Origin: Eledone cirrhosa
Taxonomy: Eukaryota
DNA: 64,000 bases
Reading direction: 5' to 3'
NCBI GenBank assembly: GCA_964016885.1
Contig: OZ024757.1
Coordinates: 15,066,001 to 15,130,000, forward strand
The notes under the pieces were generated by a model. It did not search any database and was not told the origin of the DNA. It was given only the letters and a program-made list of their open reading frames with translations. The stretch's first letter is position 1. Every line of letters starts with the position of its first letter. Made by a program: the position numbers and the translations under genes. This document shows, in pieces, positions 3,001 to 62,924 of the stretch.

Positions 3001-3003
3001 GAG
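1..3003 (+). mobile_element. R2-A clade non-LTR retrotransposon, copy 1 (5' end outside window, 3' truncated at ~3003; disrupted ORF)
   Basis: ORF 47-2485 has three N-terminal zinc fingers (CSCC..H..H, CSKC..H..C, CGEC..H..H), a Myb-like motif (WSEQEV..LPGKTVKQISSKR) and RT motifs (APGPDG, AFLDLAKAFD, GVRQGDALSP, YADD). The reading continues in another frame after TTT-TAG at 2480-2485 (GGLGL, LRTNTFPTREC) and stops before the CCHC/RLE domain. Confidence 0.92.
47..2485 (+). CDS. R2-type ZF-Myb-reverse transcriptase ORF (N-terminus open, ends at frameshift/stop)
   Basis: 812-aa ORF with C2H2/CCHC/C2H2 fingers, Myb and a complete RT core with YADD. Confidence 0.85.
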   Translation: MTHRRFQIPTILVRRDTPDKFILEYPTHALVLRGKQLPSWLACDPMDSVCEVGQTVAGEDCLEIPCKSVVMFCSCCSRHFSDPSGGAEHLLRCHERKAVFRCSKCGRESCHLHSLRVHVGRCTGRRWDDMPAVSDLIHRCGECDRAFRTVAGRSQHERHRHPVAANRRRIAKHAEEIGKKRASRAAAAASRERAGQPRTRVGRGCWSEQEVSVLLEKEDELLRAGCRRVNLGIAPFLPGKTVKQISSKRSDLRNKKKHCKQSPTRSAGSLERRPPNQPSGASIPVASDSDWRNLFGEAVEQGRSQWSAAFAEYLVTFCDEITDESWDAFAGFVDEWVNNVCSNRRRGGARNTRKKSRFKRPYKKTGRKSAKSLLYARYQFLYDRDRKKLLTVILGEEMQGVCPVPMADIASAYEDRFSVPGPDVDLSAYPATEMVNNEPLLQPFTVSEVVGARRCMDPHSAPGPDGITPQQVRAIDPATLVNLFNCLLLAGRVPDILKQGRSVLIRKKMDGPIDLSNWRPLTICSAMYRLYSRILSKRMLQVTPLNPAQRGFINADGCSENLFLLQQLIARTRGGLARSRIRQLNVAFLDLAKAFDTVPHSLVFAGMRRLGFHEHMVEVVRGLYEGCVTKFSVGAETSRAISIRRGVRQGDALSPLLFNIATDPLLDALSNDCGLWIGELGLSSLAYADDNALVSGSSVGMQRLVDRCVSFYREMGLAVNVSKCAFFSIKAWGKSFLVNTDSAPEIDGIQLLRIDPAEKCSYLGVSAGPWSNLELKVSAEQVSQCVDQICCAPLKPRQKLHLLQQYYLPRLF

Positions 3004-4989
3004 GTGCTGAAAGAAGGCAGGTCCATTCTTCTGCCTAAAAGCGGAAGAAACCCGAACGACCTGTCCGACTGGAGGCCCCTGACGATTTGCTCTGCGATTT
3101 ATCGTCTCTACACGAAGGTTCTGGCGAGGCGCTTCTTGCAAGCCACTCCCCTGAACCAGGCGCAGAGGGGATTCATTAAGGCAGACGGGTGCGGCGAGAA
3201 CGTTTTTGTGATTCGCGAACTGATTGCGATGGCGCAGGGTCGGAGAGGTGCCCGACGTCTGGGCCGTCTCGATGTCGCCTTTTTGGATCTCGCAAAGGCC
3301 TTCGACACGATTCCCCATCAGTTGGTGGCCGCCGGTATGAGGCGGAAGGGATTTTGCGCTCACATCACTGACCTTGTCGCCGACCTGTACACGGGGGCGA
3401 CGACCAGGTTCGAGTTGCGCTCGGGGAGGAGCGACCCCATACCGATTCTGAGAGGAGTCCGACAGGGTGATGCGCTTTCCCCGATTCTGTTTAACATAGC
3501 GACGGACTCGCTGCTGGATCGCCTCTCTGAGCAGAGGGGTGTTTGCGTCGGAGCGGCGGGCATATCGTGCTTGGCGTACGCGGACGACACGGCACTGTTG
3601 TCCGGCTCCTCAGGGGGCCTGCAGCGTCTGCTCGATCAGAGCGCGAGCTTCTTCAGGGAGGTCGGCATGGCGGTGAATGTGTCTAAGTGTACGTCGTTCG
3701 CGCTGGAGTCGCGGTCCCGTACCTTCTTTGTGAATAGGGATGCGTCCCCGGTGATCGGCGGTAGGCCTCTGCCGCGGTTTGACCCTGCCGACAGGTCCTT
3801 CCGATATCTCGGGGTGGAGGTCGATACTTGGTCCGGTGGTGGCGAGGTGGTCTCCGTGGAGTGGTTGCGCGGATCCCTCGAAAAAATCCGCGCTGCACCC
3901 CTCAGGCCGAGACAGATGTTGGATCTGGTTCAGACCTTTCTCCTCCCGAGATTCCTCTACGGTCTGACGATGAATCTTCCGGCGCGATGCGTGCTCGAGT
4001 CACTGGATGCGGTGGTGCGTTCCGGGGTGCAGTCGTTCTTACATCTCCACGAGTCGACATCGTCCCATTTCCTCTACAGTTCCAGGGCGGATGGCGGACT
4101 CGGCCTCCAGGAGCTGGCGAGATCTATCCCGGCGAACGTGATTAAACTCTACCGCAGACTCGAGACATCTAGCTCGGCTGCAGTCCGGGGGCTTGCGGAC
4201 GCGGCTGGTCTGCGTGCGAGGTGCGCCGAGATCGCCACCAGGTACGGACTGCCGCTGCCGCCTTCTGACCCGGAGCGGCCTTATGATCCCGGCATCCGAG
4301 CGTTCCACTCGCGGGCGTGGGAGTCGCAGCCGGTGCAGGGGCTATGTGCGGCCGCCTATCGTGGGAACGTAGAAGGCAACGACTGGCTATACAGTGGCGG
4401 CCCTGGCCCCCTCGAGGAATGGACGTTTCTGTGCTGCCTTAAGATCCGTACGAACACGTTTCCCACGCGGGAATGCCTCGCAAGGGGAGATCGCTCATGT
4501 CGTAGATGCGGAGCGAGGGTCGAGTCGCTCTCGCATCTGAGCGGGGCGTGCGCCGCGCTCGGGCGCCTTCGGCTTCACAGGCACAACTCGGTGTGCGGTT
4601 GGATCGGAAAGGAAGCGGAGCGCCTGGGCTGGTCGGTCGCGGTGGAGCCGGTCTTCTTCGTGGAGGGCCGAACGCTCATTCCGGATCTGGTATTTAGCAA
4701 GCCGGGTTGGAGGGTCATAATTGATGCGACGATTCGGCTCGAGCAGGGTTCGGCCCTTGAGAGGGCGGCCGAGGAGAAAGTGTCGGAATATTCCCCGTTG
4801 GCGGATTCGCTTCGGGAGGGCGATCCCCGGACGACGGTCTTCGTGCACGGTTTTCCAATTGGGGCTTGTGGCAGCTGGTCCGTCGCGGCCGAGGCAGCTT
4901 TGAACGATCTTGGAGTTGGGGGCGGTGCGTTCCAGAGATTCCTCTGCAGGCGCACTCTCTGTAACACCATGGGGTTGTTACGTGATTGA
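3004..4989 (+). CDS. R2-like RT + CCHC zinc knuckle + restriction-like endonuclease (5'-truncated, otherwise uninterrupted)
   Basis: 661-aa ORF with AFLDLAKAFD, GVRQGDALSP, YADD, GGLGL, CRRC..ESLSHLSGAC, HRHNSV and PDLV..IIDATI..EEK..Y (PD..D..K RLE). Confidence 0.9.
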   Translation: MLKEGRSILLPKSGRNPNDLSDWRPLTICSAIYRLYTKVLARRFLQATPLNQAQRGFIKADGCGENVFVIRELIAMAQGRRGARRLGRLDVAFLDLAKAFDTIPHQLVAAGMRRKGFCAHITDLVADLYTGATTRFELRSGRSDPIPILRGVRQGDALSPILFNIATDSLLDRLSEQRGVCVGAAGISCLAYADDTALLSGSSGGLQRLLDQSASFFREVGMAVNVSKCTSFALESRSRTFFVNRDASPVIGGRPLPRFDPADRSFRYLGVEVDTWSGGGEVVSVEWLRGSLEKIRAAPLRPRQMLDLVQTFLLPRFLYGLTMNLPARCVLESLDAVVRSGVQSFLHLHESTSSHFLYSSRADGGLGLQELARSIPANVIKLYRRLETSSSAAVRGLADAAGLRARCAEIATRYGLPLPPSDPERPYDPGIRAFHSRAWESQPVQGLCAAAYRGNVEGNDWLYSGGPGPLEEWTFLCCLKIRTNTFPTRECLARGDRSCRRCGARVESLSHLSGACAALGRLRLHRHNSVCGWIGKEAERLGWSVAVEPVFFVEGRTLIPDLVFSKPGWRVIIDATIRLEQGSALERAAEEKVSEYSPLADSLREGDPRTTVFVHGFPIGACGSWSVAAEAALNDLGVGGGAFQRFLCRRTLCNTMGLLRD

Positions 4990-5888
4990 GCACGTCCGCG
5001 GGGCGCCTCCTTTGCTTTGTTTTAGACCTTTCGGGCCCATCGATGGCGACCTCCCGTAAAATCTCACCTTGGCCGAGCTCGACCCCCCTCCACTGGGCTT
5101 AGTGTCGGTCGTTGAGGTCCAGTCGCCAACGATCCGGCTCCCCGTTCTTTGTTTTAGAAAGACTCCCGTTCTTTGTTTTAGACCATTCGAGCCTATCGAT
5201 GGCGACCTCCCGTAAAAACTCACCGTGGCCGAGCCCGCCCTCCCGACTAAAACTGGGCTGGGTGTCGGCCGTTGAGTTACAGTCGCCAACGATACGGCTC
5301 CCCGCTTTTTGTTTCAGACACGGATCCCCGCCACAGGGCGACGCGTCGGTGTCCGAACCTCGAGCTCCACCCCCCCCCCCGCAGACGGGAGGCTCGGTTG
5401 GGACGATTCGGCTCCGTCGACCCTTCAAGGCGGGGACAAACGCGACGTCGCACTGGTATGCCCCCCCTCGGGGTCAGCGGAGCGTTTGCTCCGGGCGTGG
5501 GTCTAACGCGTTATCGGACTTACACTACCGGAAAAGACAAGCGGCCTAAGACCGCGATACCGACAAGTCGTGACGAATACCCATCCGTCGTGGCTTGCTA
5601 GTCTGGGTCGGACTCGAGCCCGACATGGAAGCTAGACAGCGCAGTTTAGGTCTGCCAAATAGAGCGGTGGATTTCTCCCCGGCGGTCAGAGTAGCTCCCC
5701 AGTCCGATAGGCTCGAGTTCTTCCTGCCCCAACTCGGGGGTCCCGCCGTCGAGCAGTTCTCCGATGGAAGAGCTTTGTTTGGGTCATGGGTCTCCCGCAT
5801 CCGTTGATGTCGCCATTATTTGGCGGGGTTAGTGTCTCTCCACGCAAATGAGATAACGTCATAATTTATTATTGACATCGAAAACTAT
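3004..5888 (+). mobile_element. Second R2-like family element, 5'-truncated, with long 3' UTR
   Basis: Begins abruptly inside the RT (LKEGRSILLPK) and is clearly divergent from copy 1. A GC-rich 3' UTR with an internal ~160-bp duplication follows. The 3' boundary is approximate. Confidence 0.85.
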
Positions 5889-6087
5889 GTAACTATGACT
5901 CTCTCTTGTCGGCACCACCCTTGGCGTGGGAAGAGAGCTTAAGTCAGTGGTTTTGAGCTGTATGAGAGAGGCAGCTCTGTCCCGCTTCCCTTTTTTCTTT
6001 TTTTTTTTTTGCGGTGGTCAGTGTTGACTCGGCAGGTTCTACCATTCTCGGTTGGTCGGCCACATTAATGACGAACTAATTGGTGCC
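5889..6087 (+). ncRNA. 28S-rRNA-derived leader plus HDV-like self-cleaving ribozyme fold at the R2 5' end
   Basis: GTAACTATGACTCTCT (5889-5904) matches 28S just upstream of the R2 target. P1 CTCTCTT(5901-5907)/AAGAGAG(5931-5937); P2 GGCACCA(5911-5917)/TGGTGCC(6081-6087); P3 CCC/GGG with a 7-nt loop; CTAA (6076-6079) at the catalytic J4/2 position. Confidence 0.72.
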
Positions 6088-6093
6088 TAAATT

Positions 6094-9000
6094 ATGATGA
6101 TACAAAATTTGAAGTCCACACGGCAGCTGGGGGCCGAAAAACCAGTGGCCGGAGGGAATGGGATGGGTCCCTCCGGCCTGTCGCAGCGTTCAGTAATGGC
6201 CCGCTGCGATTGGCAACTGTCTCCGAGGACTGGCAAAGAGCCGGGCCATGTTCCTCATAAGAGCGCCGGCTCACTGGATTTGACCCACCGGAGGTTTCAA
6301 ATACCGACTATACTAGTTCGTAGGGATACACCCGATAAATTTATTCTGGAGTACCCAACCCACGCTTTGGTTTTGAGAGGCAAGCCACTGCCGTCGTGGC
6401 TCGCGCGCTACCCCATGGACTGTCTGTGAGGTTGGGCCAACAGTCGCGGGGGAGGACTGTCTCGAGATTCCGTGTAAGAGCGTAGTCTTGTTTTGCTCGT
6501 GCTGTTCGCGTCATTTCTCGGGCCCGTCTGGTGGGCGGAGCATTTGCTGCGCTGTCATGAGCGAAAGGCAGTTTTTAGGTGCAGCAAATGCGGTAGGGAG
6601 AGTTGCCACCTGCATTCGCTCCGGGTGCACGTGGGCCGATGCACGGGCAGGAGACGGGACGGCATGCCCGCCGTCTCGGACTTGATCCACAGGTGCGGAG
6701 AGTGCGACCGTGCCTTCCGTACGGTCGCAGGAAGCTCGCAGCACGAGAGACATCGTCATCCAGTGGCAGCCAATCGCCGCAGGATCGCGAAACACGCGGA
6801 GGAGATCGGAAAGAAGCGTGCCTCTCGTGCTGCTGCTGCAGCCTCTCGTGAGCAGGCTGGGCAGCCCCGCACCCGGGTTGGCCGTGGTTGTTGGTCCGAG
6901 CAGGAGGTTTCGGTCCTTCTCGAGAAGGAGGACGAGCTTCTTAGGGCGGGGTGTCGTCGTGTCAATCTTGGGATCGCTCCTTTCCTGCCCGGAAAGACTG
7001 TGAAACAGATTAGTTCGAAGAGGAGCGATCTAAGGAATAAAAAGAAACACTGTAAACAGTCCCCTACCCGTTCTGCAGGGTCGTTAGAGAGACGGCCGCC
7101 TAACCAGCCGAGTGGGGCGTCCATCCCGGTTGCCTCTGATAACGATTGGAGGAACTGGTTTGGCGAGGCGGTGGTGCCTGGGCGCTCTCGATGGTCCGCC
7201 GCTTTTGCCGAGTGTCTAGTTACATTCTGTGATGAGATCACGGATGAGAGCTGGGATGCGTTCGCCGGGTTTGTCGATGAATGGGTGAACAATGTGTGCT
7301 CGAACAGAGGGCGTGGTAGAGCGCGAAATACACGGAAAAAGAGTAGATTTAAAAGGCCCTATAAGAAAACTGGTAGAAAGAGTGAAAAGAGTTTGCTCTA
7401 CGCTCGCTACCAGTTTTTGTACGACCGAGACAGGAAGAAGCTCCTTACAGTAATTTTAGGCGAAGAGATGCAGGGGGTGTGTCCTGTCCCACATGGCGGA
7501 CATCGCGTCTGCTTACGAAGACAGATTCTCCGTCCCTGGACCAGATGTGGATCTTAGCGCGTATCCCGCAACGGAGATGGTGAACAATGAGCCGCTTTTG
7601 CGGCCGTTTACCGTGTCCGAAGTGGTGGGTGCGCGTAGGTGTATGGACCTGCATTCGGCTCCGGGGCCCGACGGAATCACGCCCCAACAGGTACGCGCAA
7701 TCGACCCTGCAACTCTAGTGAACTTATTCAACTGTTTGCTGCTAGCCGGGAGAGTTCCCGATATCTTGAAGCAGGGAAGGTCAGTCCTCATTCGCAAAAA
7801 GATGGACGGTCCGATCGACCTTTCCAATTGGAGACCCCTAACGATATGCTCTGCCGTGTATCGTCTATACACCAGGATTCTCTCCAAAAGAATGCTTCAG
7901 GTAACACCCCTGAACCCGGCCCAACGAGGGTTCATTAATGCGGACGGCTGCAGTGAGAATTTATTCTTACTGCAGCAACTAATCGCTCGCACTAGGGGTG
8001 GGCTAGCTCGATCGAGGATTCGGCAGTTGAACGTGGCCTTCTTGGACCTTGCCAAGGCCTTCGATACTGTTCCGCACTCACTTGTGTTTGCGGGCACGAG
8101 AAGACTTGGATTTCACGAACACATGGTCGAAGTCGTGAGAGGTCTATACGAGGGTTGTGTTACAAAATTCTCGGTCGGAGCGGAAACGAGCAGAGCCATC
8201 TCGATCAGGCGAGGAGTACGGCAAGGAGATGCCCTCTCGCCCCTTCTCTTCAACATTGCCACTGATCCGCTGTTGGACGCCTTGTCCAACGACTGTGGTT
8301 TATGGATTGGAGAGTTGGGTTTGTCGAGTTTGGCGTACGCGGATGACAATGCTCTGGTGTCCGGCTCCTCGGTGGAGATGCAGCGCCTAGTTGACAGGTG
8401 TGTGTCTTTCTACCGGGAGATGGGGCTAGCAGTAAATGTCTCCAAATGCGCCTCTTTCTCGATTAAAGCGTGGGGAAAGTCTTTCTTGGTCAACACGGAC
8501 TCCGCCCCTGAGACTGATGGGATTCAGCTCTTGAGAATCGACCCTGCGGAGAAGTGTTCTTACTTAGGTGTTAGTGTCGGCCCGTGGTCGAACCTCGAGT
8601 TGAAAGTTTCGGTGGAGCAGGTGTCAAAGTGTGTCGATCAGATTTGCTGTGCTCCACTGAAGCCCCGGCAGAAACTCCATCTACTACAGCAGTATTACCT
8701 GCCTAGATTGTTTTAGTCTAGTGCAGGTGATGCCTAGCAGGATTAAACTCGAGGAGCTAGACGCGGCGATTCGCGCGGGAACACGTAAGATTATGCATCT
8801 GCATGCGTCGACCTCGGTTTCCTTCTTGTACTGTAGCAGGCGGCACGGTGGATTGGGTCTTTGCCATCTGGCGAAGTTAATCCCATCCATCGTGATTCGT
8901 AAGAATCTCCGCCTGCTTGCCTCTCGATATGACGCGGTTCCTCTCATGGCGGAATCGGCGGGCCTTGCTGTGCGAAACAGCGAGATAGAGATGCGTTATG

Positions 9001-9673
9001 GTTTGCCTACGGTTCCTCCGGGCTCGACCACGTACGCGCCTGATCTTGGGCGGGAATGCACCGAGTTTGGCCTCTCAGCCCGTCCAGGGGTGACCGAATC
9101 GGTAACGATTGGCTGCTCCGCCCGGGTGTGGTTTCTGAGGGGACCTTTCTAAGTTGCCTTAAACTGCGAACCAATACGTTTCCCACCCGGGAATGCCTGG
9201 CGGTCGCGGTGATAAGACCTGCCGACGTTGTGGAACGGCCGCTGACACAATCGCCTACATCAGCGGCCAGTGCCCTCTTCTGAAGAGAAGGCACTTGGCC
9301 CGGCATGACCAGCTGATAGCGGACGAATCCATACGCCTTGGTTGGAGGGTCGGCTGGGAGCCCTCTTACCGAGTGAATAATGCGAGACTCATTCCGGATC
9401 TGGTAATGACGAGATGGGGTACGACGGTGGACGGTGAGATATGAGCAGGGAAGTGCTTTGAATGATGCCGCGGCAGAGAAGGTACGTAAGTACCTTCCGT
9501 TGACTGCGCTGCTAGAAAATGAAACAGATGGGAGTCTTGGTTCATGGCTGTCCCATCGGAGCTTGGTCGAACACGGCTGAAGAGACACTAACTGCTCTCG
9601 GGATTGAGGACGATGCGTTCAGGAGGCTTCTGTGCCGTCGAGCGATGCTAGCGACGCTGGAAATGCTTGAGTA
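6094..9673 (+). pseudogene. Disrupted R2 ORF (ZF-Myb-RT-RLE)
   Basis: ATG at 6094 is in frame with the copy-1 N-terminus. Indels lie at ~6421, ~6533, ~7491, ~8713 and several places in the endonuclease region. Confidence 0.85.
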
Positions 9674-10265
9674 GGGTCCGGCTGGATTCGACTTGTTGGC
9701 TGGCTCTCGGGATGGGGCTTTCCGGGCGCTTCTGGTCCCTCTCACTTTGACTGACTGTCGTCCAATCCCCTTTTCTCTTGTATGAACCCGTGCCGGGTTC
9801 GGGGGATGATTGCCTCAGGTTTTATTTTGTTTGTTTGTTTGTGCGCGTTAGAGCCTAGAATCTCTCTTCCTACTTCCGACTAACCAATTAACCCGGTAAG
9901 CGGTCGGATGGATAATCCGACTCCGCCGGTTCCGCGAGTCGGGGCGTTCGTATTGGGTGTACGATAGCACGCCCTTACCCCTCGCTGCAGGGTTACGCGT
10001 TGTTATTGTGTTTTTTATTGTTGTTTATTAATGTTTATTAATTTAGTTTATAATAGGAGAGTAGGAAACACAGGTCTCGAAGCGCGGTATTTACGGGTGG
10101 TTGAGCGGTGCACGACCACCTTATTTTAGTTTATGAAACAGAACAAGGATTGGACTTTATCTACCGGAAGTGACAGATGGCGGCTGGAATTGCGGTTGGC
10201 GTGACATGATGACTCTGCCACGGCCGAGACATTTTTCCCAAACGGTAGATTACTACGGCATACCA

Positions 10266-11059
10266 ATGGCTTCCCACTCTGTTCTGCCAACGTACACGGG
10301 CGACGTAAGGTTATGGTTCTCGCAATTAGAAGCTTTCTTCAGGGCGAACAGAGTCGACGAGGAACTACAGCATTCTGTGGTCCTTAGCGCAATTCCGCCG
10401 GCAATTCTCCCAGCGGTCAAGGACCTCGTGTTAGAGGCAACGACAGAATCGTCGTACACGTCTCTGAAGGCTGAAATACTCAGCCGGACAGAACAGTCGT
10501 CAGAGAAGAGATTTAGGGCTCTGGTTCACCTAGAGCAAATAGGGGATGGCACCCCATCGAACCTCCTTAGGCGAATGAAGGACCTAACGGAGGGGTCTGC
10601 AGCGGAAACTGTCCTGCTGAAGCAGTTGTTCTTTTCGCGTCTGCCGACAAACGTACAGGCAATTTTGGCCCCCATGAGGGATACAAGCACGGCGGATCAG
10701 CTTGCCTCATCTGCGGACAAAATATTTGAGGTGACGAATGCTGGAGACAGCGACCCCCTCGCCGCTGTTCAACACCCAGCTCGGGCCACACACGCCATGC
10801 GATCTACGCGGCAGCACCAACAGATAGCTCGACAATCATTGCGATGCAAAGGTCCATTCAGGAGCTCACCATGGAGCTCCACAAGATGAAGGCCTTGTGT
10901 GGTGGCTGTTCGCGCTCCCGCAGTCGCGGGAGATCACAAAGTTTCGGACGGCGTTCCAAATCACCAGCTTCATCCCTATGCTGGTACCACGAGCGATTCG
11001 CTGAGAACGCGAAGCACTGCGTGCAACCTTGCTCCTATCATAAGGCGGGAAACGCATAA
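10266..11059 (+). CDS. Gypsy/Ty3 gag (one internal frameshift)
   Basis: [19 protein letters not shown]..., [15 protein letters not shown], then RSRSRGRS and the CWYH..F...A..C...C knuckle in the shifted frame (10844-11059). Confidence 0.85.
11047..11053 (+). promoter_or_regulatory. -1 ribosomal frameshift slippery site G GGA AAC at the gag/pol junction
   Basis: The heptamer is in the gag frame just before the gag stop, and its -1 frame is open and continuous with the pol ORF at 11071. Confidence 0.75.
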
Positions 11060-11070
11060 GAGGTCCTCTG

Positions 11071-13558
11071 ATGGGGACAGATGGCCTCAACATAAAGCCG
11101 CCAAACCGCCATTTTTTCATTAAGGACCTAATATCCGGAAGAGGTTTCCTCGTGGATACAGGAGCCTCCTGTAGTATCTGGCCGGTCCATTGCCTGAAAG
11201 ATACCCCCATAGAGTCATCTGTTACGCTGCAGGCAGTTAACCACTCGTCTATAAAGACGTACGGGCAAATCTCGCTCCCTCTTAAATTCCTAAATCTTCG
11301 AAGGGATTTTAAGTGGATTTTTACGGTTGCCGATTTGCCATATCCCATCTTAGGAGCGGATTTCCTCCACAACTTATCTTTAACTGTGGACGTCCGTGGC
11401 CAGCGCCTGGTGGATAACATCACCGGCTTTTCAATTCATGGCCAGGAAGCCAATGCCCCAATAATCAGCCCCGTGTTCTTTATCGCTGCCGCTGGTGACG
11501 CTTACCATGCGTTACTGGGTGCTTTCCCGGAGCTCACGGATGGAAATTTTCGAGTCACTGACCCAACACACTCGACCGAACATTTCGTTTCCACCACCGG
11601 TGCCCCAGTGTTTTCGCGTCTACGCCGCTTACCGACGGAAAAATTAAAGGCAGCACGGTCCGAGTTCGACCATATGCTGCAGATGGGCATTATTCGCCCA
11701 TCTACGAGTCCTTGGGCTTCACCGTTACACATGGTGCCCAAGACTTCCGGCGACTGGAGACCCACGGGGGATTATAGGAGGTTAAATGTCATGACCGTCC
11801 CGGATAGGTATCCCATTCCCCATCTCCACGATTTTGCATCTTCACTGCAGGGGTGTAAGATTTTTTCTAAGTTAGATTTAGTGCGAGCCTACCCCCAAAT
11901 TCCGGTCAGGAAGGAGGATATTCCGAAAACTGCAATTACAACCCCTTTCGGATCATTCGAATTTTTGACCATGCCTTTCGGACTCAGGAACGCCGCTAGC
12001 ACTTTTCAGCGGTTCATAGAGGTCACGCGTGGTCTGGACTTCGTCTATGCTTACATAGACGATATTCTCGTCGCTAGTTCCTCTCCGGAAGAGCATATGC
12101 ACCACATGCTTCTCTTACTTCGGCAACTTCAGGATTACCGCGTTCGCGTGAATCCTGCAAAGTGTGTTTTCGGTTCCACTTCCCTACATTTTTTAGGCCA
12201 CCTCATCGACGCCGAAGGTATTAGGCCGCTCCCTCAGCGAGTTCAAGCCATACAGGAGTTACCGCCGCCTACTACACTTCACCAGTTGCGTCACTTCTTA
12301 GGCCTAATCAATTTCTATAGGCGTTTCATTCCTCATTGTGCTAATTGGCTATCTTCCCTTACTGACATTTTAAAAAAACGTCGTAAGAAGAATGAAGACA
12401 TTTCCTTGACACAAGGACAGCTTCAGGACTTCCAGTCTGCCAAGACAGCCCTCGCTAGTTCTTCTTTGCTAGCCCACCCGGTACCAGAGGCCAAGCTTTC
12501 GCTTTGTGTTGATGCATCTGATACCGCTATGGGAGCAGTTTTACAGCAGTCTTACGCTGAAAACCAACAACCTTTGGCATTTTTCTCGAGGAAGTTGAAA
12601 CCAGCAGAAACGCGTTATAGCACGTTTGGGCGGGAATTATTAGCCATATATCTGTCGGTGAAACATTTCTCTCATATCCTTGAGGGGAGAAATTTTACGG
12701 TTTTTACCGACCACAAACCGTTGACCTTCGCTTTGAGGGCCAAAGCCGACAGATATTCGCCCAGAGAGACAAGGCACCTGGACTACGTTTCACAATTTAC
12801 AAACGATATCCAGCACATTGTCGGCTCGCACAACATAGTTGCAGACGCATTATCACGTTTGCCAATTAGCTCCATCTCGTCATCCCAGGATATCGACTTA
12901 GGTCGTTTAGCTGCAGACCAACCTGCACTCCAATCGTTGGACACTCTTTCTACTGAATTTGCGACTTGCATTTTCAAATATCTGCCCTTGTCCACCACCG
13001 ACAGGCAGATTCTTTGTGATGTATCCACTGATGCGCCACGACCACTTGTTCCTGAGACTCACCGTCGAATTGTGTTCCTGGCTCTGCACAACATTTCTCA
13101 TCCAGGATCTGCTGCCACAGTTAAACTCATAACAGCCAGATTCTTCTGGCCTAATATGAGGCGCGACATTGCTGCTTGGTGCCGTTCCTGTATCGCTTGC
13201 CAGAAATCGAAGATCTATAGACACACCCGGACTCCACTGGGTACTTTCACCACTCCAGATGCTCGGTTCCAACACATCCACATTGACATCGTTGGACCTT
13301 GGCCATTCAGCAGTGGATATTCCTACATATTGACGTGTGTCGATCGTTTTTCGCGATGGCCTGAAGCCATCCCTTTACAAGACATGACTGCTGAGACTGT
13401 AGCACGTGCCCTGGTATCAGGGTGGATTACCCGCTTTGGGGTACCAACTACACTCACCACAGACCGCGGTAGACAATTCGAGTCCCACCTCTTCTCTGAG
13501 CTCACCAAAATAATTGGAGCTCAACGGATTCGGACCACAGCCTATCATCCTGCTTCAA
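11071..13558 (+). CDS. Gypsy pol: protease, RT, RNase H, integrase truncated after TTAYHPAS
   Basis: FLVDTGAS; [28 protein letters not shown]; VDAS, RELLAI, TDHKPL, ADALSR; HHCC (H..SH..C..CQ), HIDIVGP, TDRG. The catalytic E is missing. Confidence 0.93.
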
Positions 13559-14575
13559 AGAACAACGCTATATGTCACAAAAAAGAGTGGAACGCGTTCA
13601 ATCACTTCCACATCATCTGGCATAGCATGCAACGACCGGGCGAAAACCAAAGATTAAAGTATATACGGAGTCTGTATAAGAAAGCCACGAAACTCAACAG
13701 ATACATCCCTGAATGTCAGAGGATTAAATTCCCGTCTAGCATGGCGAATTACTTTTGCCAGCCTCCGAGGTACATTCTAAGAAAAGGGCAGGACAGTACC
13801 AACGAACTGTTCACGGAGTGGTGCATGCAAGAATACATAGCAAAACCAGAAATAGCACCTAAACCAACAGTAGAAGAACCAACATTCAAATCCAAATCAG
13901 GAACGACTCTCACTTTATTCAACTACTTGTCCTATATATTCACATCGAAAAGATTTCGAAGCGAACAGGATATGAAATCGCATTGGTTGCACAGACCAAA
14001 TAATGATAATTTGATGTGAGCTATCTCGCACCCTATGTATGACTCGGTGATGAAAAAAGTGTTAGAGTGTGAGAAACTGAAAAGTTTAAACCAAGGCTTC
14101 AAGGAGAAATTCGAGAATATGAATTGGGAATATTTTGATAATAATAAGAATTATATGGACAGGGATGTATCATTGAAAATATTTAAATCTATCCTATTAA
14201 CGCAAGACATCAATGAACAAAGTATAGTAACTACGGTGTGGGAGTTACTAACACAAAAAAAAACTAAAAGGAACCTGTTAGTATTGAGAGGAATACCAAA
14301 TACCAGTAAATCGATGGTAGCCAGAAGTATTGCAGATATGTTCACGCCTGTCTCCACAATACAAGGTACAAGCAGCTTCCCATTTCAGAACTTAATAAAC
14401 GTGGAAATAGGTCTTATCGAAGAACCTAATTTTAACCTAGAAACGCTACAAACGTTTAAGAAACTAGCTGAAGGAGTAGACACGGAAGTAGCAATTAAAT
14501 TCAAGCAAGACCAAATAGTACATCGAACACCATTAATAATAACTAGCAACAATAAATTTGATCAAAATGCGCCTT
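13559..14575 (+). pseudogene. Endogenous parvovirus-like NS1/Rep, 5' part (HUH endonuclease + SF3 helicase)
   Basis: HFHIIWH (HUH motif) and downstream Y residues. An in-frame TGA at 14017-14019 is followed by Walker A-like LRGIPNTSKS, FPFQ, Walker B GLIEEP, B' FKKLAEG..VAIKFK and motif C PLIITSNN. Composition shifts sharply to A-rich. Confidence 0.85.
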
Positions 14576-15420
14576 TGTAACAAATAACACTTCCTTCTCC
14601 AAGCCTAGATTCGAAACCGAATCTAAGAATTCTCGCTGTTCAAAATCACGAAGACAGGCGCCAAAGAAAGGTTTTTCTTTGTCCTGTCAAAAAGTGATTG
14701 ATCGCCTCCCTTTGACCTACGACCTCAGCTAGGTCAAGCCAAAGTCAAATTGACCGAAGGACGTAGAAACCCTGTTGCGGTATGTCTATCATTCTAGCCA
14801 CCGCAACATTATATATATGAGAGTCAAGGGAAACCCGACACAGAGAGACCTGGCAAAGCAAGCGTAATGAACTACTGTGTCAGATGAACTACACACACAC
14901 ACTCACACAAACATATTCATTCTAACACACCAGTTCCACAAATGTATCCTGGTTCTATTTTCTTACATAACCACAAATTAAGTTCCAGTGAAATAAATTA
15001 TTTTTATAATGAATCCATTCACCTACTTGTTCATTTTTCCGGCATACACATGCCTTATCAATATTTCACCATTATACACACACAACCACTACTTTTGGTG
15101 ACCCCGTAAACGAATTGCGGCCTTCCTTTGAACCAGCTTCACCAACCAAACTGCATTTGGAAACAAAAACAGAACTGAGAATTCCGCGAACACAATGGCT
15201 CTCCCAGAACAGAATGCAGCGGCGAACACATCTATCGACATGGCATTCCAAGCGGCAGTTACTTTGAGAATTCCCCCATTGTGGACACACGACCCTGCAT
15301 TATGGTTTTACCATATAGAGGCCCAGTTTTCTTCTAACCGAGTAAACTGCGATGCGTTCATTTTTCCGGCATACACATGCCTTATCAATATTTCACCATT
15401 ATACACACACAACCACTACA
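14576..15420 (+). mobile_element. Internally deleted Gypsy LTR element inserted into NS1
   Basis: TG...CA termini; 4-bp TSD CCTT (14572-14575 / 15421-15424); 5' LTR ~14576-15092; PBS TGGTGACCCCG at 15096-15106; gag start LRIPPLWTHDPALWFYHIEAQF (15195-~15350); last ~65 bp of the LTR repeated at 15356-15420. Confidence 0.88.
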
Positions 15421-15829
15421 CCTTTATCTGAAAGAATAGCCTTCGTTACAAGGTATACGGAATTCATGTTCACCATTTCTTAAACATGTAAAAAGAAAAC
15501 TCAATCCATTTATATGGAACATACTTTTCTACGAATATTGTTTCAGCAATCTCGTCAATGAAGACAGTTCATCTTCAGACGATAACTTGAATTTTATTCT
15601 AGACGAGTACGAAAAACTCCAAGAGGAAGACTGGAACTGACGAAAGCGATTTCGGACTCCGTCTCCAAATCGAAGCGGGGACACCCTCAAATTGGAATGT
15701 AGCGAACGGGAGTTGTCAGATTCAGACAAAGAAAACAATGAAGGAGAATGCCGATGGAGGAAATACTCCAAAATGATGAGATCCAACAGAAATGCACCGT
15801 CTCCAGAACCATTTACAGAAGAATTATAA
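15421..15829 (+). pseudogene. Endogenous parvovirus-like NS1, 3' part
   Basis: Removing the LTR element restores ...DQNAPL-SERIAFVTRY (candidate Arg finger). After a frameshift it reads SPFLKHVKRKLNPFIW, resembling densoviral NS1 C-termini, followed by an acidic tail. Confidence 0.7.
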
Positions 15830-15851
15830 TTGGTAATTATCCTAGAGATAA

Positions 15852-15890
15852 AATAAAACTTGTATTCCTTTTTTGTGATTAAAAAAAAAA
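15852..15890 (+). terminator. Polyadenylation signal AATAAA and A10 tract after NS1
   Basis: AATAAA at 15852-15857; A10 at 15881-15890, 23 nt downstream. Confidence 0.5.
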
Positions 15891-16053
15891 TATATGAAAA
15901 GAAATAGCGAGCAACCGGCCAAGTGGTCGGTTGCTCGCTTATTTTTTTAAATATTATTTTAAAAAAGCGTTAATGCACTGCTCAAAGAACTCTGCCCGGT
16001 CGGGAGGGAGGTTGTTGACCTAAATACAATGATGCAATAATAAGCCGATTATA

Positions 16054-17780
16054 TTGCACATGGGAAAAAGAACGGCCCGTCTCCGCATTCCCAGAATCCC
16101 ACCAGGACTTGACATGTGGTGGCTTCTGGGATGTGTGATTGTGGAGGGGACAGATACCGTCTCTATAGAAGTGACCAGAACAGCAAGAGAGGACTGGTCC
16201 GGGGTTGACCTGGAGATCCTTCTCCAGATCAGGCCCGAGAATGTGAAGACAATCCCAGACCACATCCGCCTTCAGAATGGGACGGTCATTCACATTATGA
16301 CCGAAGGCAAACGGCCGCAGTGTTTTGTTTGTGGGGAAAAAACCCATTTGCGAGCCTTCTGCCCTCAACTGCTGAAAGAGGCAAGGGGTCGAAAGGCTCC
16401 ACTGCTGCCAACGCCGGGGCGAGGACCACAACCAACACCAGCCCCGGCAAAACCACCAACAACAACACCAATAGAAAGACCACCACCAACATTGACCACC
16501 CAGGGGGGAAACGAGGAAAGCTGTCAAATTCCCCCTCCCCCCAAAAATACACACACCAATAAAACCATAAACATACATACGGAAACAGACCCCTCATCTA
16601 CCAGTAGTGAAGATGAGGGAAAACCAAAATCCCCCAAAATACAAAAAAGGAAACACAAAAAGAAAAAAAACTCAACAAAGCACAAAATCACCCACAATAA
16701 AAAACGCAGACACCACCCACGCAAACATCTCTCCAATGACACCACCATCACCATCACCGGAATCCCCCAAACGCAAACAACCTAAACAGATGCAAGAACA
16801 AATATACACACAAACATCTGAAACCACAGACACCGCACTCACAACAAACACAGATACAACCGAAACCACACCACCAAAGCCACGCAAACAAATAAAATCA
16901 CACCAACAAAACATACAAAACTTTGTGCTCGTCAGGAGGGCAAACAAGGAACTGATGGCCCTCGTAGCACGAAGTGAAAATACACAAAAAGAGGGGGAAA
17001 TTTTTAAATCGAGCACATTTCGCGTGCCAGAAGATTTGGTTCTGGTGCGAATGTCGCTCGATATATTCAAAGAAATACGAGACAGCTTTCCACGGGATGT
17101 GGGAACCCCGAACGTAAAACCCACTTCAAGACTTTTAAAGAGGTTCCAAAAAGAAACCCCACCAACTATGGAGGTCGAACAACCCGACCTTCACAAGAGC
17201 CCGGAAGGTAAGTAAACCTTCCTCTCTCTCTTTTTAACCTGCCAACATGGCTGTATTAAGAGTAGGATGTTTAAATGTTCGAGGCCTGGGATTGTCCTGG
17301 AAGCAGGGTCACCTGCTCAACGACCTCAGGTCTATAGAAATGGACGTAATTGCCGTCAGCGAGACCAGGATTTCCGACGACTATCAGATCTTTGCATCTG
17401 TTAACCGGCCGGGAATGGGAGGCGGGGTGGCAGTGCTGTTTAGGAAAGGCCTGGATCTCGAGGTAAAGTCGATCTTCCGGGAAGTTGGTGGTCCTGGACG
17501 TGAACAGCTTTTGTCACGTGTAGAACGGATCCGGCTATCGGCCGAGTCCATAGTGAAGATCGACCCGCCACCTTCTTTTGGCCAGGAAGGGCAGGCAATT
17601 TTCCTCTGTCTGGTTTCAGTAGCGAAAGAGGTTGTATGGTGGACGAAGTTGAAAGGACTGAAGACAGACACTTTTCTCTTCGGCCAATCCCTCATCAACT
17701 TTTTCAAGTTTCACTTGGAAAGGAAGGTGAGGGTGGAGAGAGAAGTGCTGAAAAGGACACAAAAAATATTGGGGCCATGA
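16054..17780 (+). mobile_element. Tx1/L1-like non-LTR element, internally deleted
   Basis: ORF1 has a CCHC knuckle (CFVCGEKTHLRAFC) and a Pro/Thr-rich tail. ORF2 starts as an APE endonuclease (CLNVRGL, VIAVSETR, GGGVAVL) and jumps directly to C-terminal sequence (KEVVWWT), with no RT. Confidence 0.75.
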
Positions 17781-17956
17781 GCCCAAAACTTAAACTTTTT
17801 ATTTATCAAACAAAATATTTCTTTGAAAAAAAAAAACATGGACGACAAATTTACTGTTTTTAACAGACCCTCCCCCACCAACACCATTGTAAGCCTTGCT
17901 ATGGTTCCCAACACTGAAAATATAATTAATACCAGTCTGAATTATTTAGAATTGCC

Positions 17957-18853
17957 ATGGATTTCCCGCCATTACCAATAACTGCAGGTGTTAAAGCCGC
18001 CACCCCCACCACCACAATGTCAAAAAGAACAACGAACACCACTGATACCACCACCACAGTGACAACAGAAACCCCAAAAAAATAAATTATTATCTCGTGA
18101 CATCAACATGGATTCATCCAGAATCGACTCTTCCATGCCGAACACCACTGACACCTCCACCACAACTGAAGCTAAAAATAACAATAACAACATCAACACC
18201 ACCGCAAAGCAAAATGTGTCGTTTGCCAAAGCAGCCAAGAAAAGCGAAACAATCGAGGTAAGCCAGGATGAATTAAATGAAGCCAAGAGAATGGTAAAAA
18301 AAGATGGGTACAGGGTCAGCCTCACCCGCCCACCTAATAAAATGGAGCAACGTCGCCTATGCACCGTGTCTTATCGGACGATTAACACAAAATAACAACA
18401 GCAACAATGAAATTAAGAAAACTACCCTGAGTTTTGCCAGAGTAGCAAAAACATGCGAAGCGATCCAGGTAACTCAGGAGGAATTAGAACAAGCCAAAGG
18501 AATGGTAAAGAAAGATGGGTACAGGGTCAGCCTCATCCCCCACCCCACCTAATAAAATGGACCATCGGCGCCTATGCACCGTGTCTTATTGGACGATTTA
18601 CACAAAATCACGCTGAATGGAATGGGCATCCGAGTCCCAAATACAAAAAGCTTTGGGACATGTGGGCGAAAAAAACCCACATCAGCCGTGGGCAGAAATA
18701 TGGAACCGTGGACGTGTTCTTTGGAACACCACAGGAAGCCAGAGAGCACTCCATGGCTCCATTAAGAAGCGACGACTTCACACTCGTCCCAAGCTATTGT
18801 GGCCAGAGACTCGTGAAGATCAGGGTGACCCACGTTCCATCGCATGTAGACTG
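17957..18853 (+). mobile_element. Degenerate ORF1-like fragment of a non-LTR element with an internal ~170-bp duplication
   Basis: SFAKAAK motif; KKDGYRVSL occurs twice (near 18300 and 18510); Thr/Asn-rich composition like the upstream ORF1. Confidence 0.45.
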
Positions 18854-19379
18854 AGGAGTGGGAAAACTGAGAGAGGGTGCTTGCCCTGGTGGTCAGCGTG
18901 GCCGTGGTCTTTTGTGTGGTTTTCGCCATGAGTGACCTTCAGAAGCTTCCCCCCTATTGGGGAATTTTTTGTTGTTTGAATTTTTTTGATATTTCTACCT
19001 TGTTATAACCTTCTTTACATGGCCAAAACCAACTTTGTATCGTTCTGTGCCATCTGTAATGTTTTTCTTCATGTTAGCCCTTGTGACCAATAAAGAAACC
19101 ATTATTATTGACTTTCTCTGATCTTGCAGACAATATGGCAATGAAAATGAGAATAGGTAATGAGACAGTCAAAGCCTTCAGCAGCAAGGAGGAAGTTATC
19201 ACCAGGATGAGAAAGATTAAATCGGTCGCCACACTGCAAGGCATCAAAAATGTGGTTGGCCTCATGGCACTATCTCAATGGCAACACATTAGCATTATAC
19301 CTCAAAATGGATATGTCAAACCAATCGAACACAGAGAAAATAGAACATCTCAAGGGAAATGTTCAATGAAGGACTTTAT

Positions 19380-21140
19380 GTTGCTTTTGACAAGCTAGGC
19401 AAAGTGAGATGGACGGGAGAGCAGGTGGACTTATTTGCAGCAGAAATACAGCAATACAGCAATGAAATTTTGACAGGCAACAAGAAAATGAACATGAGTG
19501 AGCTAATCACACAGACCTGGGGATGCTAGAAGTGAGTTTCCGGGAGATGTGTAAAGATGGATCATGGAGGGCATATCATTTGATCCGTTGCAAAGAGGAG
19601 ATAAAGAATGAAGTGTTGTTGTTAATGGCAGTAGTGCAAGCAACAAAGGACAAGGTGAGAGCAGTGCTGGACTTTTGGGAACTGAATAAGTGTCATGCCA
19701 CACAGGCAGGGAAACCTTGCAAGAGTGGAGACAAATAATGGGAGCCTCCATGATTGTTGGCACATCTGCACTACACGTGACTGAGAAACTGTGGAAGTAT
19801 CAGCTGGTCAGGTATAAGGGCCAGACATACTGCCTGACCAGACTGGCGTTCAGGTTGAAGTCAGCACGAAAGATCATGGTCATTCTGAGGAAGGTAGACA
19901 AGTTGAAGAGGGCCACCAATTCCTATATTGATGATATCTTGGTAAACGAGACTGTGGTATCAGCAGCAGAGGTCTCAAGCCCCCTAGGAAGGTTCAGGTT
20001 AATGGCAAAACCACCAGAGGCGATGGAAGGAGGCTCTGGGACTGAAGCTGCGCTGAGACAAGACGTGCACACTGGTATTTCGGAGGGAAAACGAAGGCCC
20101 AGAACTGGGCACTGACATGGATAGACGAGAACTTTTCTCAATGTGTGAGAAATTGGTAGGTAACTATCCAATAGAAGGGAGGCTCCGAACAGTGTGCTAA
20201 TATGTCATGAGACAAATGGACGGGGTGAGGTGGGGAGACAGGGTAGGAAAGGGGATGGTGGCCATGATGCAGGAGATCGTGGAGAGGATAAAAGTGGCAT
20301 CAACATGGCCGAATTGGATGCCGTGCTGAGGGGAGTGAATCTTGCTCTGAGATGGAGGCTGCGTACCATAGAGATTCGTACTGATTTGGCCACTGTGCTT
20401 GGATGGGTGCTCATCAGTGAGAGGAGGGTGGGAATGAGGGGTGGCAGATATGTTAATAAAGCGCCGCCTGCTGAGTTTGACTTGAAGTTGAGTGTGGCCT
20501 TTGTGACCTCAGAGTAAAATAGGGTGGACATTCTGACCAGGTTGAAGAAAGCCTGGCTAGAATCGCCAGACTATGTGGAAAAGGGGATCGCTGAAGTATG
20601 TCGACTGAGTGACTCAGTGTCAAGGTTGCACACCATGCATCATATGGGAGAGGATAGGACCCTGTTCCTAGCCAGGAAAGTCGACTCCGACATTACCAGA
20701 TAGAGTGTCCAGAAAGTGGTTGGGAGTTGAGTTGTGACAGATGCCAGTCTAACGACCCTACCCTGGGCGTGCACGAGACGGGTAACATCCTGGTGGAGCA
20801 CAACTGAAAGCAGTGGATGTGAAACATTACCCACAGGAGATATATCTTTCAATGGTCGATTGTGGACCGGCGTGGATGGCAATATTGATCCTTTAGTGCA
20901 GAGGAGATATTGTTGGAAGCGAGGGACCAGTGACGCCACATCAGGGTTTGTGGGCCTGTCACTTCCTCTTTCGTCAGGATGTGGTACCATGTGGACATGG
21001 TATCATTATGTGTGAGAGAGAGACTGTATTTTCATGGTCAAACATAAACCATGTGAACATCCATGTAGGAGCATTAAATCCGGACTCAAGTGGAGAGGCA
21101 AGGTCGGCTCATTCGCTTCCTCACCACAATATTAAAGATT
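19380..21140 (+). mobile_element. Highly degenerate Gypsy-like pol relic
   Basis: YCLTRLAF, SYIDDILV, NMAELDAVLRG..IEIRTD (RNase H-like), N..D.LTR and an H...H integrase zinc-finger remnant across several frames. Confidence 0.6.
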
Positions 21141-21147
21141 AGCAAAA

Positions 21148-21179
<32 letters not shown>

Positions 21180-21194
21180 AAGAAAAAAAAAAAT

Positions 21195-21420
21195 CTATGC
21201 AGAAATAATGAGGAATCTGCAGATACTCCACACTGACTATACTTTTAGATTTATCCCTCTGATCATTGGGGCACTGGGATATGTTAATAACTACCTCCGT
21301 ACAAGTCTTGAGAAGCTGGGCTTCACAGAACCAGAAAGGCTATAACTAGTTAGGAAATTACAACTACAATCCATTAATGGAATTGTAAAAATACATAAAA
21401 CATTTCAAAAATTCTGCATG
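21195..21420 (+). mobile_element. 3' fragment of an RLE-type non-LTR element (R4/NeSL-like)
   Basis: Translates as YTFRFIPLIIGALGYV..LEKLG, typical of the RLE C-terminus; preceded by an A-tract. Confidence 0.45.
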
Positions 21421-21676
21421 TATGCATATATAGATACAAACATATACATGTGTACATATATAACTCAAAACATACAGATCCACAAATACAACATCCATAC
21501 TAACACACGTGCACACATACAGACATGCATACATATTTACCTAGTTGATGATGTCTAAATAAGAATGAAAGAGTCTTGTGGAATATATATATACACGCAG
21601 GCATACATGCATGTAAATATAAAGTCCAAATATGTGGTGAAATAAGAGAGTTCTGTGGTAAAAAATTATTCCTTTC

Positions 21677-21714
21677 TTATTCCAACAATGGCTGCAACTT
21701 CTTTGTTCCAACTG
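21677..21714 (-). CDS. FAN1: FAN1 terminal coding exon 15
   Basis: ttttcacag acceptor, phase 1, gives [12 protein letters not shown] (cf. vertebrate AVGAK). Confidence 0.75.
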
Positions 21715-24700
21715 CTGTGAAAACATGAATGGAATAAAAAAAAAATTAATAATTTCAGCATTTCATTTAGTGTCAAAATTGTTTCTACTGAACTGGACTG
21801 GAGGGGACTTTTGGAGTAAATGTTGTGAAGCTGGAGCTGCTTCTTATGACACACAAGGATAATATATCTAGTCTATATCAGATATATATGAATATACAGG
21901 GTGAGGACGATATTTGTTCGCAACTTTCAACTGCTATTTTTATGCAAATTTTTTTTACTTCCATTGTCACTCTTGTCTTCATGAAAACAGTGACTATATT
22001 TCCATTATTTATTTTCAGAATAATTTTGAACTTCCAAATTTGTGGAAGAGACACATAGTTCTTCTTGGAATCCGCTCCGGGAGGACAAATAAGGAAATTT
22101 CAGACTTTCTTAGCGTCAGCAGGAGAATGGTGTCTCATCCAAAGACGTGCCCAGAGTCATGCAAAGTTTCCAGCGACAACATTGGTCTTAGGTGTCGTCA
22201 GCAGCCAAGGTGACGTCATGCCACCTCACTTCTTCCCTGAGGGCCTCAAGCTGAACACCGATGGCTACATCCGCGTTCTGAGCAAGGTAGTAAAGCCCTG
22301 GATCGACCAGGTAGCTGCAGGTAGGCCGTACGTGTGGCAGCAACACTTAGCGCCCTGTCATACCAGCCGAAAGACCCAAGCCTGGCTGTCAGAGAACTTT
22401 GTCGACCACACTTCACCAGACATCTGGCCTCCCAGCTCGCCTGACTGCAACCCCCTCAACTTCTTTGTGTGGGGCGCAGTTGAACGAGACACCAACAGAT
22501 CTATCTGCAATACGAAAGACGATCTGAAGGCCAGGATCACAAGTGCCTTTAGGGGCCTAAGTCGGGAGACGGTGACGAAGGCCTGTAGCCGGTTCCGAGG
22601 CCGCCTTGAGGCCGTCATCAAAGCCAATGGCGGGTTTATCTTAAAAAATAAAACTACTGTTATTTTTTTCTTAGACAGTAATCTTGCAAACAAATATCGT
22701 CCGCACCCTGTATATATCATCGTTTTGGTGCTGACATACGTTAGACAGGACTTTTGGAGACAATCTTTGGAAGCTGGAGTTGCTTCTTATGACACACAAG
22801 GATACAGTGTATTTATTCTATACCAGATATACACAAATATGTCAACTTTTTGGTGCTAGCATATTAGACCGGACTTTTGGAGACAATGTTTTGAAGCTGG
22901 AGTCATTTCTTATGAAACTCAGGCATAGTGTATCTATTCTCCATCAGATATATATATATATATATCATCATCATCGTTTAACGTCGATTTTCCACGCTAG
23001 CATGGGCAGGACAGGTTGACCCTTTAAGAGAGAATCAGGTCAGAAGTCAGTGTTTCACTCACCGGGGTTGATTTTGGCTTAGTTTCTACAGTTGGATGCC
23101 TTTCCTAATGCCAACCACATTTACAGTGTGGCCTCGGTACTTTTTGTAGGGTCACCGACATATATATGTATATTATATATCATCGTTTTTTCATCAACTT
23201 TTTGGTGCTGGCATACGCTAGACAGATTTTTGGAGACAATGCTTTAGAACCAAATGTCCTTTCTGACACTAATCCTCTTTATAACACAAAGGGACATGGT
23301 GTACCTCTTCTACATTGGATACACAGTGAATCATAAACTCAGTTAGGACAAGCTGTCCAAGATATGAACTGCATATGAAGCTGCACTCAAAAATATGAAG
23401 CATAATTGGGACAAGATGTCTTAATTCTCAACACTGTATGCTAAAATCTTGTCATGGAGGACTCTGTTCTTTATTTCACTGCAGTTGATTAATAAAATTG
23501 GTACCAGTAATACACCAGTATATGCAGCAAATTAGCAGAGCCATTATAATGTCAGGTAGAGTGTTTTGCAGTATTTGTTCTGGCTGTCTGAGTTCAAACC
23601 CCACCAAGTTAAACTTTACCTTTCTTCCTTTCCAGGTTGATCAAGAAAGTACCAGTTCACTACTGAGGTTGATTCTTCCTCTATATCTCTTTACTCTCTC
23701 TCTCTCTCTGGAAGTAATCAGTTGTGTTGTGCGATGCAATTCACGTTGTGAGTCACTATGGAACGGCACTCCGTTGGCTACGACGAGTGTTCCAATTGAT
23801 CCGATCAACGGAAAAGTGTTCTTGTAAAATTAATGTGCAAGTGACTGAGCATTCCATAGATAAGCGTGCCCTTAACATAGTTCTCAGGGAGATTCAGCAT
23901 GATACAGAATGTGACAAGGCTGGTCCTTCGAATTACAAGTACAACTCATTTTTGCCAGCTGAGCGGACTGGAGCAATGTGAAATAATGTGTCTTGCTCAA
24001 GGACACAACGCACTGCTGTGAATCAAATTCACGGCCTTAACCACACAGCCACGCACCTATAGTACCCCTACAACTCCATAGGGAGTTATGGGTCCATATC
24101 TCCAATGCAGAAATTTGTTTCTATGACATTAACAGTTTCATTACTATATTTCTAACTAAGATACTATGTGTTTTAGTTAAATACTAAAATAACCAAGAAT
24201 TACTATGGTAAGGGCACCCTGCTGTAGAAACCATGACAAAAGGATTACAGGTAAATACAGGTGAACCTTGTAAAATATAAAGGTAATCTTTTTAGAGATA
24301 TATGAATGTCGTATTTGGAACATAACGAAACTGAAGGTTCTTAAATAAATATATAGACCACTGTGCTACCATTACACCAACACATCACCCATCTCTTTCC
24401 ATTCAAATTAGAAACTACATTCTTAGCGAGTTTAAATGGCAAGTAAGTATGTTTTGAAACAGTGAGCGAGTTTGAAATTAGAAAATATATAGCTTTCACC
24501 GTATTTTAACTAAAGGAATTTTAGCTTGATAATGGGGTTTAGAACCCTCAGATAAATGGAAAAAGATGAGTATTGACGTACATGAGTTTTATTTTAAAAC
24601 TACTCTAATTGCAGGCACATACAGGTAAACTTTGTAAGGTTATTTAAATTCTGTTTGAACATCACTATATAATGGATGTAAAACACCAACTCAAATAATG

Positions 24701-57534: not shown

Positions 57535-57639
57535 TAGAATTGTTTGTTTAAAAAAGAAGTGACATAATCACTACTTTAAAACAATAGCTCAAGGTCTTCA
57601 AAATGCTTTTAATTAAGCATTCAGTGTATTACCAAATAC

Positions 57640-60600: not shown

Positions 60601-60979
60601 TATATATCATTCATACATATATATATATATATATATATCATTCATACATATATATATATATATATATATCATTCATACATATATATATATATATATATAT
60701 CATTCATACATATATATATATATATATATATCATTCATACATATATATATATATATATATATCATTCATACATATATATATATATATATATATCATTCAT
60801 ACATATATATATATATATATATATCATTCATACATATATATATATATATATATATCATTCATACATATATATATATATATATATATCATTCATACATATA
60901 TATATATATATATATATCATTCATACATATATATATATATATATATATCATTCATACATATATATATATATATATCATT
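57640..60979. repeat. Compound microsatellite [(TA)n CATTCATACA]n
   Basis: 3.3 kb of ~22-32-bp units. Confidence 0.97.

Positions 60980-62891: not shown

Positions 62892-62924
<33 letters not shown>

Follow-up and report, generated by a model that had tools for sequence, protein, structure and literature searches.

Background

How does the replication gene of a DNA virus come to lie in an octopod chromosome, and did it enter as DNA or as messenger RNA? The question is raised by a stretch of 64,000 nucleotides of Eledone cirrhosa (contig OZ024757.1, positions 15,066,001 to 15,130,000 of the forward strand; hereafter the window), which holds a decayed parvoviral NS1 replication gene, an endogenous fossil. 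The lineage of this NS1 has already been noted in octopus, and such sequences were listed in 2016. A preliminary description of the locus, made from its letters alone, had read it as a captured NS mRNA that ends like a polyadenylated transcript.

Structure and identity of the NS1 fossil

The features of the locus and of its flanks are listed below.

10137..11059, + strand: Gag region of an outer Gypsy-type LTR retrotransposon, in two overlapping frames (DUF7041, E 3e-15 in 10137-10886)
11044..13559, + strand: Gypsy pol with protease-like, RT, RNase H and integrase parts (RVT_1, RT_RNaseH, Integrase_H2C2, rve)
13560..14575, + strand: NS1 piece 1, the N-terminal part without about 60 codons plus the SF3 helicase (Parvo_NS1, E 1e-16)
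14576..15420, + strand: nested, internally deleted LTR element (TG..CA ends; CCTT on both sides, a 4-bp target duplication)
15421..15829, + strand: NS1 piece 2, to the natural stop at 15827-15829 (alignment to P0002)
15852..15857, + strand: polyadenylation signal AATAAA
15881..15890, + strand: A10 run, 23 nt past AATAAA
15897..15948, no strand: imperfect palindrome (hairpin core), candidate viral terminus (fold test, shuffles, inverted joint)
15956..16056, + strand: stretch of 100 nt after the hairpin, at least 59-65 nt of it apparently common to a second hairpin contig
16057..16785, + strand: 5'-truncated high-copy LINE-like element (depth >20,000; loose ends of 25-29 contigs just ahead of 16057)

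Gypsy sequence matches through 13559, which puts the first viral base at 13560; the start at 13559 given in the preliminary description was corrected accordingly, and the features that it describes are real. Piece 1 is 74% identical to residues 60-412 of P0002, an intact relative of 547 aa on a Logan contig of 2093 nt which has about 60 more N-terminal residues and the same stop position, and which could represent viral, transcript or further endogenous sequence. Piece 2 is 71% identical to P0002 residues 411-427 and, after a frame change, 59% identical to residues 429-547. The flanking pieces match adjacent P0002 residues, which bears out the proposal that excision of the LTR element rejoins NS1. 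Since the alignment runs to the last residue of P0002, where the window NS1 also finishes, 15421-15829 is the true NS1 C-terminus; the rebuilt protein aligned there as the preliminary description had expected, and the failure to align that it had named as counter-evidence did not occur. Its view that the frame reads NS1 after one frameshift also holds for the C-terminus, while two in-frame stops and the missing N-terminal codons had gone unnoted. The disabling lesions comprise the loss of about 60 N-terminal codons, two stops (14017-14019 in piece 1 and 15638-15640 in piece 2), the LTR insertion, and one frameshift near 15464-15480 in piece 2, and the element most likely does nothing now.

What remains of the nested LTR element is a 5' LTR and PBS-like site, the beginning of gag (DUF7041) and the last 64 nt of a 3' LTR, with the LTR-end repeat identical at 64/64 nt. 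An organism-B contig runs across 14405-14647 without a single difference. Both flanks and the LTR junction are covered by contigs and RAD fragments, so the integration is chromosomal. No second NS1 remnant was found in the window. A six-frame Pfam scan of 13000-25000, on long inputs of limited sensitivity, returned no capsid family, which agrees with the earlier statement that no capsid gene follows; a fragment need not carry one.

The parvoviral nature of the fossil, claimed at the outset, is upheld by the Parvo_NS1 match and by the alignment to intact P0002. When a profile of the clade was compared with PDB, parvoviral NS1 and AAV Rep ranked first, and the top Atlas clusters for P0002 were NS1. 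Alignment A1 shows a conserved His-x-His motif and a Tyr in the N-terminal part, a candidate HUH endonuclease motif that the window also has, although no Pfam Rep model matched. Assignment of the gene to the family Parvoviridae is firm.

Relatives and classification

The first protein search gave 28 matches. The two closest named ones were A0A0L8GWZ8 / KOF81493 from Octopus bimaculoides (P0017, 79% over the helicase) and CAI9727457.1 from O. vulgaris (P0008, 'nonstructural', 75% over the helicase), both with similarity reaching into piece 2; two more distant named matches came from the tubeworm Lamellibrachia. By these matches the host would be an octopod. P0017 and P0008 differ from the window copy in being shorter sequences with other C-termini. 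P0017 is an NS sequence in the supplement of PMC5013282, where its best viral match is an iteradensovirus at 32%. A literature search that reached few subscription journals yielded nothing on this locus, and nothing on cephalopod parvoviral elements beyond PMC5013282; the accessible text of PMC11357303 mentions neither octopus nor cephalopod.

A quick tree was built from the helicase regions of 170 of the 190 rows, the other 20 being omitted for not covering the helicase core. The window sequence, the two Octopus proteins and three unnamed sequences formed a 6-row clade (SH-aLRT 96), nested in a 44-row clade of its own (97) with Octopus and Lamellibrachia sequences. Most rows are unnamed and the backbone is without resolution; a named chaphamaparvovirus (P0082) falls outside the 44-row clade. 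The earlier label 'densovirus/hamaparvovirus-like' is supported at family level and no further, given the separate 44-row clade and the unresolved deep branches.

With the helicase piece, 0/4 IMG/VR candidates were confirmed as relatives' DNA; with alignment A1, 0/360 JGI metagenome candidates were confirmed, and seven IMG/VR loci, with no more than 24-32% identity, were set aside. Longer or fused relatives of P0002 were absent among 4263 candidates, which is weak evidence. The short contigs bearing NS1 relatives measure 1.1-4.0 kb and are compatible with NS-only and full genomes alike.

Several relatives lie on much longer contigs whose lengths coincide: 835,705 nt (ENA) for each of P0015, P0019, P0024 and P0026, 168,177 nt for P0180, P0182 and P0185, and 1,007,605 nt for P0181 and P0184. 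Such clade members, several per contig and many with long open frames, suggest tandem arrays in another animal; P0015 itself has two NS1 stretches in permuted order. P0190 carries a long extension (aa 1-177) ahead of the usual NS1 start, without a Pfam match, which may represent an upstream gene read off frame.

The left junction with the Gypsy element

Gypsy pol stays open for 838 codons, is broken inside the integrase core and continues in frame into NS1, a continuation absent from the preliminary description, as was the hairpin described below. In the resulting 991-codon ORF (11044-14019), Gypsy protease, RT, RNase H and the cut integrase are followed by 152 codons from the start of the NS1 piece; this open-frame fusion is probably due to chance.

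The junction itself is real. Contigs of the Gypsy family part from the window behind 13559, and one contig extends 29 letters into the Gypsy side, 2 short of the bridging rule. A RAD fragment of 155 nt (13475-13629; its begin and end places interpreted as one restriction fragment) spans the junction with 18-27 molecules, in a different sample and study. Beyond NS1, 0 matches were obtained for the continuation of the Gypsy family, and neither a repeat of the Gypsy 5' region nor a matching LTR was found downstream. No target-site duplication was detected around 13560-15890, the longest common word being 4 nt when 40 nt on each side were compared. A 13/14-nt direct repeat links the left junction (13550-13563) with 15978-15990 and was matched in 3/674 and 6/1418 controls; as the repeat was noticed after five candidate right ends had been tried, the p value, about 0.004, counts as post hoc.

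Polyadenylation signal and A-run

The signal AATAAA at 15852 and the A10 at 15881-15890 are present as first described, and their combination is unusual locally: AATAAA followed by a run of A8 or longer occurred in 1/60 instances on the + strand of bases 1-57000 and in none on the - strand. A U/GU-rich tract (15868-15877) lies after the signal and before the A-run. The A10 may be a tail remnant or may be templated. A 50-nt A-rich run at 21144-21193, after a decayed LTR-element region, is longer than the A10 and has no AATAAA at canonical distance.

A hairpin beyond the A-run

Seven nucleotides beyond the A-run begins an imperfect palindrome with arms at 15897-15921 and 15924-15948. Its fold has a free energy of -21.9 kcal/mol (z -6.1), a stability reached by 0/200 shuffles, and the three most stable of 1676 low-GC segments of 80 nt all overlap it. 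The core alone is significant; pairing of the AT-rich outer arms (to about 15884-15960) is not. The A10 was also considered as part of the palindrome and rejected, since 1579/5000 shuffles and 170/1190 AT-rich controls pair equally well.

Two runs of one sample, which may be the source of the assembly, contain a 709-nt contig identical to 15378-16086, and the window is therefore soundly assembled here. Among the joints listed, both runs also show one from 15890 to 15956 on opposite strands, with a shorter side of 59 and 65 letters and a depth of 9 and 5.9, symmetric exactly on the hairpin axis. The depth tables place the second hairpin contig at 15890 and rightwards only, and its depth resembles that of several NS1 paralogs of the same runs, unlike that of a high-copy element. 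Over 643 bases one of these paralogs differs at 87 positions and has 20 gap letters, and two further ones have joints across the LTR site; none in those runs extends across 15736-15849 at 80% or above. As contigs in assemblies of this kind are not known to have long words in common, we infer that the second contig is a diverged copy in which the palindrome is inverted and the downstream sequence is shared. It appears to carry the palindrome turned round exactly on its axis, as in the flip/flop ends of parvoviruses; a fold-back library chimera gives identical joint geometry.

The hairpin-arm pattern had 0 matches in IMG/VR. Its four JGI matches lie in GC-rich contexts unlike the window and were judged to be chance, as were short, AT-rich organism-B matches at 15869-15959. 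Rfam returned three matches on 13000-16500, all under the gathering score. Among the data sets listed for the region none was of RNA, which has no bearing on expression.

The right flank and the rest of the window

The region 15830-16070 was tried as an NS1 start and as a repeat elsewhere in the window, and both were rejected: tblastn with 189 proteins gave no significant match and blastn no meaningful one. A G-rich tract followed by a TATA-like word at 15990-16030 could serve a following viral unit as promoter, or be coincidental. The high-copy element at 16057-16785, presumably a LINE, has an endonuclease-like ORF further to its right.

Elsewhere, bases 1-9700 hold non-LTR elements that are GC-rich and code for RT, and in which 1.2 kb is duplicated internally (1770-2996 / 8001-9202, 93%), and long AT-rich tandem arrays with periods of 27, 30 and 60 occupy 57600-63500, 48550-49550 and 29090-30170. 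A short VRR_NUC match (E 2e-6) on the - strand at about 24900-24995 may belong to an exon in a nuclease gene of the host.

Route of entry

Capture of an NS mRNA, the conclusion of the preliminary description, was not established by these results, in view of the missing target-site duplication, the missing resumption of Gypsy or LTR sequence and the strong hairpin 7 nt past the A-run. A strong DNA hairpin that resembles a viral genome end follows the short A-tail, and this leaves both entry as mRNA and entry as viral DNA in contention. A polyadenylation signal past the NS1 stop is expected in viral DNA too (PMC12297876), and therefore only the A-run and the sequence downstream of it discriminate: the A-run at canonical distance favours mRNA, and the adjacent hairpin, apparently low-copy and in two orientations, favours a viral end. 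On viral homology past the A-run, the second kind of counter-evidence named in the preliminary description, the hairpin bears only indirectly. The ranking of routes below is our judgement and was not computed.

The reading that we place first, with a confidence somewhat short of an even chance, is that viral DNA integrated in which the NS gene lies against a terminus. The source would be a parvovirus from an undescribed lineage associated with lophotrochozoans, which left a piece of DNA in the octopod germ line, extending from about NS1 codon 60 to the stop and on through a genome-encoded polyadenylation signal and an A-rich spacer to a palindromic genome end, and possibly reaching the start of the next unit (15956-16056). 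With NS1 leading into a palindromic end, the NS gene would adjoin the terminus, as it might on a segment with NS only or where units of a concatemer meet. The join to the Gypsy integrase may have arisen by end-joining at integration or by later deletion of the Gypsy 3' and NS1 5' ends, and later decay would have brought the two stops and the frameshift, with the LTR insertion being received as well. Flip/flop ends arise through rolling-hairpin replication (PMC11575299), and flip/flop palindromes of 41-55 nt are found in a whitefly parvovirus and its integrated copy (PMC12297876). Against a DNA terminus stand the local rarity of a signal and A-run at canonical spacing, and the occurrence of some clade members on contigs of 3.1-4.0 kb, which have room for an ordinary NS+VP genome.

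That rarity counts instead for a processed NS mRNA copied by a LINE through target-primed reverse transcription into an AT-rich site beside an unrelated host hairpin, its 5' target duplication having been lost later in the deletion that fused the copy to Gypsy, a scenario which as a whole we consider rather unlikely. Homology that runs to the natural stop and is followed by AATAAA, 23 nt and A10, a spacing inside the range of 10-35 nt, is what such a copy would show, and the 5' truncation, the lack of a detected capsid gene and the plentiful LINE-like elements nearby agree with it. A poly-A tail with a target-site duplication is moreover the known signature of RNA-virus elements in mammals, whereas elements from DNA viruses are mostly genomic fragments (PMC2987831). 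No such duplication was found in the comparison of 40 nt left of the junction with 40 nt past the A-run, and the best low-GC hairpin in 57 kb would have to sit 7 nt away by chance. In an mRNA a downstream element is normally cut off, and the presence of the U/GU-rich tract before the A-run is a further, weak point against the LINE scenario. Capture of an mRNA is thus possible, yet it is not the best-supported reading, and the hairpin is the more interesting lead.

Mixed or chance origins, in which a polyadenylated cDNA is fused to a separate viral end or a random NS+VP DNA fragment beside an unrelated A-run and hairpin, seem improbable to us. They would account for the stop of the second hairpin contig at 15890 on its left, and the direct repeat may be a repair footprint. 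The statistic for that repeat was obtained post hoc, however; to serve as a target-site duplication it would require that the Gypsy element had been cut beforehand at a distance of 4 nt, and sequence past it is apparently shared by the second contig.

Least probable, and in our view very doubtful, is capture of the NS mRNA by a Gypsy reverse transcriptase that switched templates, the 3' LTR having been lost afterwards: the sense, in-frame junction within pol, seen also in the RAD fragment from another study, the same three-residue motif just before the switch point in integrase and in the intact NS1 relative, and a spider gene model (P0131) that likewise joins RT and NS1 domains speak for it, but an in-frame sense junction is expected 1 in 6 times by chance, and as LTR-mediated retrocopies have the element on both sides and no poly-A (PMC5131818), whereas here the Gypsy element neither continues nor repeats its 5' region downstream and is present on one side only, this route fails its main test.

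If integrated viral DNA is the right reading, a broader one may be considered, of which we are doubtful: that a parvovirus lineage of octopods and tubeworms carries NS1 by itself on a unit of about 2 kb with hairpin ends, which integrates as DNA in flip and flop forms. Such a unit would be either one part of a segmented viral genome or a replicon that lacks a capsid gene, and genome segmentation or capsid loss would then have arisen a second time in Parvoviridae. At present the locus is one more parvoviral fossil, with an unusually complete 3' anatomy. Should the hairpin be viral, it would give the first hint of genome layout (NS beside a terminus) in an undescribed clade of marine invertebrate parvoviruses; should the A-run be untemplated, the locus would be a clear retrocopy of a DNA-virus mRNA in an invertebrate germ line.

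Comparison with known systems

The bornavirus and filovirus NP retrocopies of LINE type share with the window a single gene, 5' loss and an A-run (PMC2987831), and the window differs from LINE-made viral retrocopies in having no target-site duplication. LTR-mediated retrocopies share the sense junction inside an LTR element, which they have on both sides and the window on one (PMC5131818). Among integrated parvoviral DNAs, the tapeworm densovirus integrations kept terminal palindromes, with ITRs within concatemers that run head to tail, but their units have a second ORF 67 nt past NS1 and ITRs of up to 370 nt (PMC6880638). The endogenous copy of whitefly BtaDV is integrated parvoviral DNA that retains a 41-nt flip/flop palindrome; there it is the 5' end that is retained and not a hairpin past the NS1 stop (PMC12297876). 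A similar layout is that of the bipartite Acheta domesticus segmented densovirus, in which a hairpin-flanked segment carries NS genes with their own poly-A signals and no capsid gene (PMC10267136). That segment, from a Brevihamaparvovirus, measures 3316 nt, encodes an NS1 of 796 aa and has T-shaped hairpins of 208 and 220 nt (PMC10267136), whereas the window has a simple hairpin of about 52-77 nt, with one end seen and no VP segment; the likeness lies in layout.
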